Numbered from the stretch's first letter, positions 18,368 to 27,489 are shown. The stretch is DNA of 64,000 bases from Candidatus Heimdallarchaeum endolithica (GCA_021513715.1 CP084167.1:1088001-1152000), one strand, 5' to 3'. The notes: generated from the sequence alone by a model not told the origin. Numbers and translations are program-made.

Positions 18368-19468
18368 ATGAACACCACAAAAAAAGTTGCATTGTTGTTT
18401 GTAACAATATTCGCTACAATGAGTGTAGTGAGTCTGGTTGTATCCGGTGATTACTGGATTACAAAAAACGAATGGGTAGATCATGGATCAACCCTTGTTG
18501 AAACGAAATGGATCGATATCTTTCCTACCTATCAGCAGTTCGTTATTCGACCTGAAGTTGAAGGAACAGCTTATTCTACTTATGCTACAGCAGTATGGTT
18601 TTCCTTAAGTTCAACAGTAACGATTTCAGCAACTGTTTCCTCCTCTTGTGAATACAAAACACCAATCGTCTCTGCTTCAGCAAAAACTGAAAATGGAGTA
18701 TCTATATCTGCTTCAGCTGGTATTACGACATCAAAAGAAGTAGGGCAAACAATTGCAATCGCACATACTTCACCCGATGAAGCCATTTTCTCCGCTAAAA
18801 CTATAAAGCTAAAGGTTCAAGTCTATGCACATCACTGGTATTTGCACAAATATGGATTGGATTTCTTCCGAGGGTGGGTAGATCTTGGTATTGATTCATC
18901 AAAGACCCCATGCCACAAAGTCCAACTGAGTTACAAGATTTTGGATCTAGATGTAGCAACTTATATTGGAGTACCTATAGAAAAAGATGATTATATTATT
19001 ACTACGACTAGACCTATCTATGACATTATTATTGAACCAGATGGTTCTTTGAGAAAAGTAATTGTAGGATGGACTACTTACCAAACGTGGTCATATTCTA
19101 ATGGACCTTATCCGTTTGCAGCAAAAACATACAGGGAAACATATGAATACAACAAAAATATCGCTGAAACAACCTATCCTTATGTAGGAGCATATACAGA
19201 AAATCTTTATGTAAAAGAGAAAGTATCTACCTTTGCATCATTATCACTTACTGTGACTAGCTCAGTTGATCTAGGAGCAGGAATAGGTTCAACTAAAGTA
19301 TCTGTAAAAATAACTGGTTCAATAAAAGTAGAAGCGGCTGCTGGAGCGTCAACAAGTCAAATGTACGGATTTAAACCGGGCTGGTATGATCCAGAAAATG
19401 GTGGCCCAACAAAACATCTAAGAGTAAAACAACTAACTTTTGGAAGTTTATGGGTCCAGTTATATTAG
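18368..19468 (+). CDS. Secreted protein with two Ser/Thr-alternating amphipathic beta-hairpins (aerolysin/ETX-MTX2-like pore-former candidate)
   Basis: Signal peptide and no C-terminal TM; segments SLSSTVTISATVSSSCEYKTPIVSASAKTENGVSISASAG and SLSLTVTSSVDLGAGIGSTKVSVKITGSIKVEAAAG. Confidence 0.55.
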   Translation: MNTTKKVALLFVTIFATMSVVSLVVSGDYWITKNEWVDHGSTLVETKWIDIFPTYQQFVIRPEVEGTAYSTYATAVWFSLSSTVTISATVSSSCEYKTPIVSASAKTENGVSISASAGITTSKEVGQTIAIAHTSPDEAIFSAKTIKLKVQVYAHHWYLHKYGLDFFRGWVDLGIDSSKTPCHKVQLSYKILDLDVATYIGVPIEKDDYIITTTRPIYDIIIEPDGSLRKVIVGWTTYQTWSYSNGPYPFAAKTYRETYEYNKNIAETTYPYVGAYTENLYVKEKVSTFASLSLTVTSSVDLGAGIGSTKVSVKITGSIKVEAAAGASTSQMYGFKPGWYDPENGGPTKHLRVKQLTFGSLWVQLY

Positions 19469-19476
19469 GGAAAATT

Positions 19477-25730: not shown

Positions 25731-27489
25731 AGATTTAATGCTTGATAAGATCAATAGTACAGAAAATATTCCTGTTCCAAAAGGAATAATCAACCAAGTC
25801 ATTGGACAAGATAAAGCGATAGAAATCATAAAAATTGCAGCAAAAGAAAGGAGGAATGTCTTACTACTCGGTAATCCGGGTACAGGAAAATCAATGTTAG
25901 GAAAAGCTTATGCTGAATTAATGGATAAAGAACCAAGACCTGATATTCTTATTTACCCTAATCATGATGACCCTAATTCTCCTGAAGTAATAGAAGTTGA
26001 AGCAGGTTTAGGCTTACCTATTGTCAAAGAATTTAAGAGAATATATGCAAAAGAAAGTTATAAACAAAAGATAAAACAGCGAGTTCCATCTATTTTAATT
26101 GCTCTTATTTACTTAATTTACACTATCTTTGCTGGAAGGTTTGAGATTACTTCTTTTTTGTTTACTGTTCTCGTCATAATTTCTCTAGAGATGATTTTTT
26201 CTACGCAAAAGAAAGTAGATAAGAGATTAATTGTTCCAAATTTAATAATCAAAGAGGAAGAGAATGAAGAAGAGGAAGAAATAGAGGAAGAGGAAGAATT
26301 AGAAGAGGAAAAAGATAACCATCTAACAAATGGCTTCAGTTCTAGATTTATTGATGCCACAGGAGTAGAAGTAGGAAGACTTTTGGGTGATGTTAAACAT
26401 GACCCTTATGAAACTGGAGGATTGGGCACACCTCCTCACGAGAGAGTTATGCCTGGTGCTATTCATCTTGCTAATAAAGGAGTTCTATTTATTGATGAAA
26501 TAGGCGGTTTATCTTATGAAGAACAGATCTCTCTACTAACTGCAATGCAAGAGAGAAGGTTTCCTATAACTGGAAGGAGTACAGGTTCTTCATCTTCATT
26601 AATCCAGACTCAACCAATACCATGTGATTTTGCTCTTGTTGCTGCAGGAAACTATGAAACTATAGAGTTCTTGCATCCAGCTTTTAGAAGTAGGTTTCTA
26701 GGTTATGGTTATGAAGTAAAAATGAATGATTCTATGCCAGATACCCCTGAAAATAGACAAAAAATTGCTCAATTCATAGCACAAGAAGTAAAGAAAGATA
26801 AAAAATTGATTCATTTCAAGAAAGAAGCTGTAGCAGAAATAATAAAAATCGCACAAGAGTTGAGCCCAAAAAAAGATACATTAACACTCTCATTAAGGAA
26901 ATTAGGGGGTTATGTTCGAGCAGCTAGTGATATAGCTAAGAATAGTAAGAAGCAATTTGTAGAAAAAAGCGATGTTAAAAAAGCATTTGAGATTTTACAA
27001 CCAATAGAAGCGCAAGATATTATAAAAATAGAAAAACAAGCGCTAGAAGGATATCAAAAGGAGGGAGTAATTTACATTCCTTCTGAAAAAGAAGCTTCTA
27101 ATGCAATTGGAATATTAAAAACAGTAGTTCTAGACAATAACCAAGTTAATGAAATAGTTATTCTTGGAAGAGAAAAAGACGAATATACTCTTTCCCAGAT
27201 AAAAATTGCACAAACAATAATACATAAACTATATCCAGAAAAAGGAATATTCAATAAGCAAATCATTGTTGAATTTGAAGGAGAAGCAAAGAGAATCAAG
27301 GAAGGAATAGGTTTAGCTATATACCTTAGTATAATATCTGCAATCGGTTTGATAAAGATAAAAAAGAATGAGACTGCAATTGGAGATCTAGATATACTAG
27401 GAAACATTATTACTCCTTCTTATCCTTCAGTGAGAACGGCTAATGCTAAAAGAATAGGACTTAAAGAGATAGAGAAAATAGAAATATAA
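25723..27489 (+). CDS. lonB: Archaeal LonB-family AAA+ protein with a degenerate protease domain
   Basis: QVIGQD, Walker A GNPGTGKS, two TM helices, LLGDVKHDP, GAIHLANKGVLFIDE and HPAFRSR; the C-terminal Lon domain lacks GDSA-Ser and the catalytic Lys. Confidence 0.88.
   Translation: MSEDLMLDKINSTENIPVPKGIINQVIGQDKAIEIIKIAAKERRNVLLLGNPGTGKSMLGKAYAELMDKEPRPDILIYPNHDDPNSPEVIEVEAGLGLPIVKEFKRIYAKESYKQKIKQRVPSILIALIYLIYTIFAGRFEITSFLFTVLVIISLEMIFSTQKKVDKRLIVPNLIIKEEENEEEEEIEEEEELEEEKDNHLTNGFSSRFIDATGVEVGRLLGDVKHDPYETGGLGTPPHERVMPGAIHLANKGVLFIDEIGGLSYEEQISLLTAMQERRFPITGRSTGSSSSLIQTQPIPCDFALVAAGNYETIEFLHPAFRSRFLGYGYEVKMNDSMPDTPENRQKIAQFIAQEVKKDKKLIHFKKEAVAEIIKIAQELSPKKDTLTLSLRKLGGYVRAASDIAKNSKKQFVEKSDVKKAFEILQPIEAQDIIKIEKQALEGYQKEGVIYIPSEKEASNAIGILKTVVLDNNQVNEIVILGREKDEYTLSQIKIAQTIIHKLYPEKGIFNKQIIVEFEGEAKRIKEGIGLAIYLSIISAIGLIKIKKNETAIGDLDILGNIITPSYPSVRTANAKRIGLKEIEKIEI

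Follow-up and report, generated by a model that had tools for sequence, protein, structure and literature searches.

Archaeal LonB proteases, exemplified by the Lon of Thermococcus onnurineus (PDB 3k1j and 4zpx; MEROPS S16, subfamily B; NCBIfam TIGR00764), carry an AAA+ module with a transmembrane (TM) hairpin, a lid and a Lon proteolytic domain (P-domain) in this order. They are recognized by a TM-bearing membrane insertion inside the AAA+ module and by a Ser-Lys dyad in the P-domain (PMC9569914). LonC of Meiothermus taiwanensis combines a dead ATPase with a live protease (PMC3391209, PMC13069640), and the FtsHi proteins of the chloroplast Ycf2-FtsHi complex are membrane AAA+ pseudo-proteases that persist as essential proteins with a proposed role as an ATP-driven motor instead of a protease (PMC8197885, PMC10500165). 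Among the subtilases (family S8), the TM-anchored mycosin MycP stabilizes the ATPase-containing ESX membrane complex independently of proteolysis (PMC5082899), and the S8 pseudoproteases CspC and CspA of Clostridioides difficile serve as regulators or receptors in germination (PMC7200643). Here we analyze a six-gene cluster from the Asgard archaeon Candidatus Heimdallarchaeum endolithica which encodes a LonB-derived membrane AAA+ protein (P0006) directly after a membrane-anchored subtilase (P0005), both devoid of their canonical catalytic residues. The cluster spans positions 18368-27489 of a 64,000-nt stretch (GCA_021513715.1 CP084167.1:1088001-1152000), which is referred to as the window in its full length.

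The genome consists of a single 3.33-Mb contig, and the GC content is 28% in the window and about 32% in the cluster. A first reading of the sequence, hereafter the original prediction, had described six co-oriented genes separated by at most 54 bp. We reproduced these coordinates and the spacing: neighbors among the six open reading frames (ORFs) on the + strand are spaced by 54, 28 and 4 bp or overlap by 4 and 8 bp (Table 1). Hydropathy analysis agrees with the claim that every product is secreted or membrane-bound, predicting one secreted protein (the β-rich P0001, with an N-terminal signal only), four type-I membrane proteins (P0002-P0005) and the membrane LonB paralog. In each of the four type-I proteins, the predicted N-terminal signal and large ectodomain are followed by a single C-terminal TM helix and a cytoplasmic tail of 34-57 aa with 13-20 Lys and Arg (K+R) but 2-7 Asp and Glu (D+E) residues. 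A Pfam scan identified Big_7 in P0002 (weakly in P0004), Peptidase_S8 in P0005 and AAA/LonB-lid in P0006, and returned no family match for P0001 or P0003.

A LonB paralog with intact ATPase motifs and a dead peptidase domain

P0006 shares about 40-49% sequence identity with archaeal LonB, including the complete set of ATPase motifs. Walker A (GNPGTGKS), Walker B (VLFIDE), sensor-1 (AAGN), the Arg finger (FRSRF) and sensor-2 (LRKLGG) are all intact, and the TM hairpin lies between Walker A and Walker B at the position where canonical LonB carries it. Alignment with T. onnurineus Lon (3k1j) and a MAFFT alignment with seven canonical LonBs agree that G528 occupies the position of the catalytic Ser (EGDSAS motif) and R571 that of the catalytic Lys (GGxxxKIEAA). 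The original prediction of a LonB that has lost Ser and Lys while keeping Walker A/B, the Arg finger and its TM helices is confirmed by both alignments, with the refinement that the Lys was substituted by Arg and not deleted. The match of P0006 to the LonB equivalog model TIGR00764 (472.1 bits) falls under the cut-off of 516.6 bits. P0006 has the AAA+ motifs and the TM insertion of a LonB, but neither the Ser-Lys dyad nor an equivalog-level score.

Relatives of P0006 among 5.8 billion proteins form a small clade at 95%, 68%, 66% and 54% identity, after which canonical LonBs follow at 41%. A quick maximum-likelihood tree joins the six pseudo-LonBs into one clade (SH-aLRT, the Shimodaira-Hasegawa-like approximate likelihood ratio test, 100), set apart by a stem of about 1.4 substitutions per site from the canonical LonBs including that of the same genome. 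All six have Gly or Ala in place of the Ser, the Lys position is Arg in five with one ortholog retaining Lys, and the GG motif that precedes this Lys is lost. A precomputed Lon_C match is absent in every member of the clade. Within the clade, identity reaches 82-91% in the AAA core, as compared to 29-57% in the dead P-domain. The pseudo-LonBs also gained an acidic insertion directly after the second TM helix (TM2), which is present in six of six clade members (25-76 aa, 6-23 D+E) and in none of the seven aligned canonical LonBs, and in the lineage of this genome the P-domain is shortened.

The original prediction also implied that the genome should contain a separate canonical lonB. This gene was found at C1:3315237-3318751; its product scores 631 bits with intact EGDSAS and GGVTSKIEAA motifs. 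Compared to this housekeeping LonB, the pseudo-LonB is an accessory protein paired with a subtilase. The canonical LonB, which lies outside the window, has a peculiarity of its own. It is interrupted after ...HDPFQ by an intein (loci L001, L003) that starts with Ser1 (SFFYTNN), contains a LAGLIDADG-like motif (GSLFGDGG), and ends with ...DILCSN followed by Ser+1 (SGGLGTPPHERVE). The intein-bearing LonB is distributed over two overlapping frames, one of 710 aa ending at 3317369 and one of 478 aa starting at 3317315, and a possible start at MKYIPSK in the second frame would leave a C-intein of 39 aa. The same two-frame layout recurs in genomes G001 and G003. As read from these sequences, the LonB intein may be split and operate by trans-splicing, or else the two frames may reflect a frameshift.

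With regard to known proteins that have lost one of two activities, P0006 appears to be the mirror image of LonC: both are Lon-family members with a single surviving activity, but P0006 has kept intact ATPase motifs next to a dead protease. By its motifs, a LonB that combines a live motor with a dead chamber would represent an inverse of LonC for which we found no description in the literature and databases searched. FtsHi resembles P0006 as a membrane AAA+ protease paralog that was kept without its catalytic motif. The two differ in that FtsHi derives from M41 zinc metalloproteases instead of S16 Ser-Lys proteases, resides in a eukaryotic organelle, has no subtilase partner and bears no sequence relationship to P0006.

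A membrane-anchored pseudo-subtilase

P0005 matches the Peptidase_S8 family (PF00082) over residues 94-344 with 48.9 bits (cut-off 21.8). The S8 domain (residues ~85-370) is followed by a GIFT/GldG-like domain (~500-730), a TM helix (855-873) and a basic tail. Although the hidden Markov model (HMM) of the S8 fold is matched, the Asp-His-Ser triad and the oxyanion Asn are gone. A phmmer alignment to S1P and a MAFFT alignment with active paralogs agree on the replacements, which are Asp to S103, His to I135, oxyanion Asn to D220 and Ser to L311. Both alignments concur with the original prediction of a fourfold loss, and catalytic residues at shifted positions were looked for and not seen. The replacements are conserved in all five P0005 orthologs (S; I/L/V; D; L/I), whose dead S8 domains are 37-54% identical. 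The four Cys of the zinc ribbon in the cytoplasmic tail are invariant in the same five proteins.

The family to which P0005 belongs comprises membrane subtilases of about 980 residues that are common in Heimdallarchaeaceae and consist of a signal, a propeptide, an S8 domain, an ABC_transp_aux/DUF4350/GIFT domain and a C-terminal TM helix. These active S8-GIFT proteases (for example L015:694-3681; nearest solved relative Tk-SP, PDB 3afg) share the architecture of P0005 and 21-29% identity over about 600 residues. In contrast to P0005, they keep the catalytic residues; the three examples checked (L019, L020, L023) all retain Asp, His, Asn and Ser. Their N-terminal region aligns with the Tk-SP propeptide, a region that the pseudo-clade does not have. 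In the pseudo-clade, the S8 domain has acquired two insertions and the C-terminus a basic tail of some 50 residues that includes the four invariant Cys, whereas the tails of active paralogs measure 7-10 aa and contain no zinc ribbon. We considered whether the active paralogs also have an ATPase partner and could eliminate this possibility, as they neighbor housekeeping genes (Nop5/fibrillarin, RNase HII, rhomboid, RagA-like GTPase). Because active paralogs have short tails, no ribbon and no ATPase neighbor, the basic zinc-ribbon tail appears to have been gained together with the pairing to Lon.

The original prediction had named this protein a pseudo-S1P, and this designation did not hold. S1P (MBTPS1, 8uwc) has an S8 domain, a GATase-like domain and a C-terminal TM helix as P0005 does, has a basic cytoplasmic tail, and is the nominal top PDB match (E 1.7e-6). 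However, its lead over the other PDB matches of P0005 is negligible and only the S8 domain aligns, so that the affinity of this catalytically active protease to P0005 does not exceed generic S8 similarity. The best solved relatives of the active paralog are Tk-SP-type subtilisins, with S1P outside the top 60, and a faint match to MBTPS1_4th (PF23090, E 0.036) occurs in the active paralog only. An origin of P0005 from an S1P-like lineage was rejected.

MycP resembles P0005 by its extracytoplasmic S8 domain and C-terminal TM anchor, but it has kept the triad; P0005 scores 27.7 bits against the mycosin model TIGR03921 (cut-off 278.75), and the cluster contains no type VII secretion (Ecc-type) genes. 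CspC and CspA, like P0005, are retained S8 pseudoenzymes, but they are soluble bacterial spore proteins that keep the prodomain and lack a GIFT domain, a TM anchor and an AAA+ partner. As a whole, the cluster has no described counterpart in Pfam, NCBIfam, PADLOC, PHROGs or the literature searched, in agreement with the claim that no system of this composition has been described. PADLOC-DB 2.0 returned generic matches to the AAA region of P0006 and nothing for the other five proteins, and the PHROGs search gave nothing specific.

Conservation, synteny and selection

The same catalytic losses occur in every ortholog found (five subtilases, six Lons), down to 32% identity for the subtilase and 54% for Lon. 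The subtilase gene directly precedes the Lon gene wherever a contig (L037, L034, L033/L042-44, L036, L035) continues for more than about 150 bp in the upstream direction. A strain with 95% identity (L037) contains all six genes between the same flanking genes. The 68% lineage (L034) also contains all six, at identities of 58% (P0001), 47% (P0002), 46% (P0003), 35% (P0004), 46% (P0005) and 68% (P0006). The 66% lineage (L033/L042-44) encodes a P0002-like protein, P0003, P0005 and P0006, and the 54% lineage (L036) encodes P0003, P0005 and P0006. On another contig of the sample that yielded L036 (L047), P0001-like and P0002-like genes stand side by side. The core, made up of an Ig-like protein, P0003, the pseudo-subtilase and the pseudo-LonB, is syntenic in four Asgard lineages.

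Measured against the 95-98% identical strain (L037), the ratio of nonsynonymous to synonymous substitution rates (dN/dS) of P0005 is 0.20, based on 57 nucleotide differences, and that of P0006 is 0.13, based on 82. The two genes that flank the cluster, Endonuclease V (EndoV) and DUF2804, have ratios of 0.42 and 0.07. The conserved synteny, the non-neutral dN/dS and the open, full-length frames with ancient losses support the earlier view that the two genes were repurposed instead of decaying. With shared losses, purifying selection and synteny in four lineages, both P0005 and P0006 are real and ancient pseudoenzymes under purifying selection.

The reference strain also provides an example of true decay. 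Downstream of its DUF2804 gene (L037:13154-14059) lies a second pseudo-LonB copy, broken up into one ORF of 185 aa and another of 91 aa, with internal deletions; the matching segments correspond to P0006 residues 157-240, 354-420 and 492-580. The window has no counterpart of this copy and contains a PIN-domain gene at the equivalent place. By comparison with this fragmented copy, P0006 does not look like a gene in decay.

Distribution and mobility

The module is an accessory element. In the congener G001 the flanking EndoV and DUF2804 genes are 135 bp apart with nothing between them, and none of 40 relatives contains a P0006 ortholog or a clear P0001 homolog. A single P0001 match in G035 is marginal (E 6.5e-4) and interrupted by three in-frame TGA stops. 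Out of 400 Asgard species representatives from 85 genera, only this genome matches P0006 at E ≤ 1e-120. Scans of metagenome contigs with P0003 and P0005 profiles, of genome contigs with a P0005 profile and of viral contigs with a P0006 profile gave no further instances; the sole match in the genome contigs was an unrelated actinobacterial subtilase.

Comparison of the L033 assembly with this genome suggests that the module has spread horizontally among Asgard lineages. The two share 58% identity in EF-2 and 38% in XPB, but 66% in the pseudo-LonB (86% in the AAA core). Since the pseudo-LonB is more alike than these proteins, either horizontal spread among distant Asgard lineages or extreme constraint would account for the difference. 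At the cluster borders we found no integrase, tRNA gene or att-like direct repeats.

Three observations concern the flanks of the locus. Positions 28075-32000 of the window are 97.3% identical at the nucleotide level to G001 (L032:323-4248), whereas the adjoining EndoV and DUF2804 genes are only 70-78% identical, which suggests recent recombination or transfer at this locus. G001 also contains an extra partial copy of DUF2804, and its Endonuclease V ortholog (G001:C1:1053613-1054293) is interrupted by one in-frame TAG.

The secreted protein and the tail-bearing surface proteins

P0003 belongs to the core of the module. It has no family match, and a PDB profile search at E ≤ 10 returned only noise. 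Its orthologs are present in all four lineages (46, 45 and 35% identity), with PVNDSVWKF and PYFSVGA as conserved motifs. P0002 has orthologs at 47% (L034), 33-34% (L033/L042) and 27% (L047) identity. Its paralog P0004 is found only in the lineages of this window (with L037) and of L034; the true start of P0004 is probably the ATG at 21866, as called in the 95% strain L037. The tails of all P0002-P0005 orthologs measure 34-57 aa and contain 9-24 K+R but 1-7 D+E.

P0001 is an orphan with about eight relatives among 1.8 billion representatives. Its gene adjoins a P0002-like gene in L037, L034 and L047. In the L033/L042 lineage, however, the P0001 homolog is not linked to the core but located on a separate contig (L039) beside a helix-turn-helix (HTH) gene, and the homolog P0132 (contig L045) stands alone among metabolic genes. 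Because homologs are unlinked in a core-bearing lineage and solitary elsewhere, P0001 is peripheral to the module. This distribution does not support the idea of P0001 as the client and purpose of the machine. Five members of the P0001 family were searched against Pfam and PDB profiles without a match at E ≤ 10 beyond noise. A protein-language-model (ESM-feature) search retrieved clusters of ETX/MTX2, monalysin and aerolysin look-alikes at scores of 0.86-0.90, under the level where chance matches become rare, and the protein contains Ser/Thr-rich stretches of alternating polarity such as LSLTVTSSVDLGAGIGSTKVSVKITGSIKVEA. The likeness of this peripheral and optional protein to pore-formers is a language-model lead.

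A possible mechanism and its alternatives

How might two dead proteases and a set of tail-bearing surface proteins work together? Given the established gene order, topology, catalytic losses, intact ATPase motifs, conservation, selection and mobility, we infer that the products assemble physically, that the basic tails dock to an acidic collar, and that the motor functions without degradation. The LonB-derived AAA+ protein would form a hexamer in the membrane with its substrate-entry face toward the bilayer, as LonB does. Isolated LonB P-domains form hexamers, and the dead P-domain is probably retained as a ring-forming scaffold because it holds the ring together. The acidic insertions after TM2 would create a negatively charged collar around the pore at the membrane-proximal entrance. 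By their basic tails and the zinc ribbon, this collar could capture the surface proteins encoded alongside the motor, namely the type-I pseudo-subtilase with its GIFT/GldG-like ectodomain and newly acquired cytoplasmic zinc-ribbon tail, and one to three more type-I proteins with long polybasic tails (P0003 and the Ig-like P0002/P0004). ATP hydrolysis without degradation might then assemble, hold, remodel or extract these surface proteins, with the pseudo-subtilase as a binding or scaffold ectodomain and P0001 as an optional secreted accessory or cargo. FtsHi and mycosin provide precedents, one for each half of this proposal.

We favor, with moderate confidence, a functional and horizontally mobile accessory envelope module in which a non-degrading membrane motor acts on the tails of surface proteins. 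The narrower claim of a selected and canonically non-proteolytic module is likely. Of the overall interpretation in the original prediction, the conserved non-proteolytic module stands, but P0001 as its purpose and the affinity to S1P do not; the scaffold that binds pro-peptides and the unfoldase/dislocase action, which it also proposed, are putative. Several observations weigh against the favored reading. Low-complexity features such as polybasic tails and acidic loops can appear in proteins that do not interact. With about 4-5 lineages the module is very rare, and the P-domain of this lineage lacks its last ~25-30 residues, which indicates some relaxation; nothing of the missing C-terminus was found 3' of the P0006 stop. 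On the contig of P0012 the product of the upstream gene ends in a TM helix and a short tail without a zinc ribbon, which shows that the ribbon is not universal. The dN/dS values of P0001-P0004 (0.09-0.63) are based on only 7-12 differences each. AlphaFold2 (AF2) models from 5-row alignments were unusable, with a predicted local distance difference test score (pLDDT) of 35 for P0001 and 43 for P0003. A complex prediction for P0006 with the TM helix and tail of P0005 (residues 845-925) scored 0.01, which speaks neither for nor against binding.

The same genes could instead constitute a transmembrane sensor, in which a pseudo-subtilase/GIFT receptor signals through its zinc-ribbon tail to the AAA+ ring, which then remodels a cytoplasmic target. 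The role of other pseudo-subtilases as receptors or regulators (PMC7200643), the conserved zinc ribbon, and the conserved replacements in the former active site, which suggest a maintained binding pocket, are all consistent with this idea. We nevertheless consider it unlikely, since the cluster has no conserved output gene such as a transcription factor or a kinase, and four different proteins with basic tails fit better to clients or partners than to a single receptor. Slightly less likely still is a conflict or toxin island, with P0001 as an aerolysin/ETX-MTX2-like pore-former that the other five proteins export, hold or neutralize. The look-alikes from the ESM-feature search, the alternating Ser/Thr-rich stretches, the adjacency to a P0002-like gene in three lineages and the accessory indel with its patchy distribution, reminiscent of horizontal gene transfer, point in this direction. 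Against it stand the low feature scores, the absence of any Pfam or PDB-profile match in five family members, the L033/L042 lineage that keeps the core with its P0001 homolog on another contig near an HTH gene, the solitary P0132, and the lack of PADLOC matches save generic AAA similarity.

Two further explanations concern the pseudoenzymes themselves. Proteolysis could persist through non-canonical residues, such as the invariant H245, D220 and S218 of P0005, or the Arg/Lys of P0006 together with another Ser. Several new invariant polar residues in or near the former active site, and the one pseudo-LonB ortholog that keeps its Lys, would be compatible with such cryptic activity. However, P0005 has none of the four canonical subtilase residues left and carries aliphatic residues in place of two of them, the nucleophile position of Lon is Gly or Ala without exception, and the GG motif is lost; we regard this explanation as very improbable. 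Even less credible is the view that P0005 and P0006 are decaying duplicates, functionless pseudogenes in progress that are still open by chance. The truncated P-domain, the rarity of the module and its absence from the congener could be read in this way, but this reading is contradicted by the present data: the frames are open, the gene order persists in four lineages at identities as low as 32-54%, dN/dS amounts to 0.13-0.20, identity in the AAA core is 82-91%, and the truly decayed copy in L037 is fragmented with internal deletions.

Features of the cluster and neighboring genes

The coordinates of the cluster and its features are collected in Table 1. The TATA-like and GGTGA motifs upstream of P0001 are weak evidence because such motifs can occur by chance in a genome with 28% GC.

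Table 1. Features of the six-gene cluster (positions in the window)
Feature	Coordinates	Strand	Description	Basis
Upstream intergenic region	18108..18367	+	TATA-like TTTATAAA at 18328-18335; GGTGA 4-9 nt 5' of ATG	read from sequence
P0001	18368..19468	+	366 aa; secreted, β-rich; Sec-type signal; no membrane anchor	
P0002	19523..20851	+	type-I membrane protein; Ig-like (Big_7) ectodomains; C-terminal TM helix; 41-aa tail with 19 K+R	
P0003	20880..21860	+	novel type-I membrane protein, core; C-terminal TM helix; basic 34-aa tail	
P0004	21857..22948	+	P0002 paralog, weak Big_7 match; type-I membrane protein; 57-aa basic tail	
P0005	22953..25730	+	membrane-anchored pseudo-subtilase	
P0005 dead active-site positions	23250..23897	+	S103, I135, D220, L311	alignments
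P0005 cytoplasmic zinc ribbon	25632..25679	+	CPTC...CHFC in basic tail	
P0006	25723..27489	+	LonB-derived membrane AAA+ protein; peptidase domain dead and shortened	
P0006 two-helix TM hairpin	26080..26181	+	residues 120-153, inserted in AAA+ module	
P0006 acidic insertion	26251..26316	+	KEEENEEEEEIEEEEELEEEKD; residues 177-198; directly after TM2; clade-specific	
P0006 dead dyad	27298..27447	+	KEGIGLAI (G528, Ser position); PSYPSVRTANA (R571, Lys position)	

Elsewhere in the window, one ORF of 2,800 aa occupies positions 111-8513 on the + strand; the next ORF, of 324 aa, overlaps with it and has no Pfam match. Three co-oriented genes on the - strand (9778-14523) encode proteins of 695 aa, 673 aa (no match) and 209 aa (coiled-coil). 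The 695-aa protein has a weak match to Tubulin/FtsZ GTPase (E 1.6e-4), below the cut-off. In the 66% lineage (L042:18841-21023, L033:10035-13297), genes for an XPB-like helicase (DEAD/ResIII/ERCC3_RAD25_C) and a DUF790 protein follow the module at a distance of about 3 kb; the other lineages do not share them.

Implications

The database labels "ATP-dependent protease LonB / ATP-binding protein" and "S8 family serine peptidase" are misleading about the peptidase activity of both genes. Two unrelated protease families have been turned into pseudoenzymes and locked into one operon, which provides a natural case in archaea for the repurposing of proteases as motor and scaffold. It is conceivable, though rather doubtful at present, that the LonB-derived ring pulls on the polybasic tails of surface proteins, the pseudo-subtilase among them, as a prokaryotic counterpart of Msp1/p97-like or FtsHi-like motors for the extraction or translocation of membrane proteins without degradation, and that it spreads horizontally among Asgard lineages as a cassette. 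As the hosts are Asgard archaea, a non-degradative membrane AAA+ protein that acts on tail-bearing surface proteins would bear on the origin of eukaryote-like membrane-protein handling.

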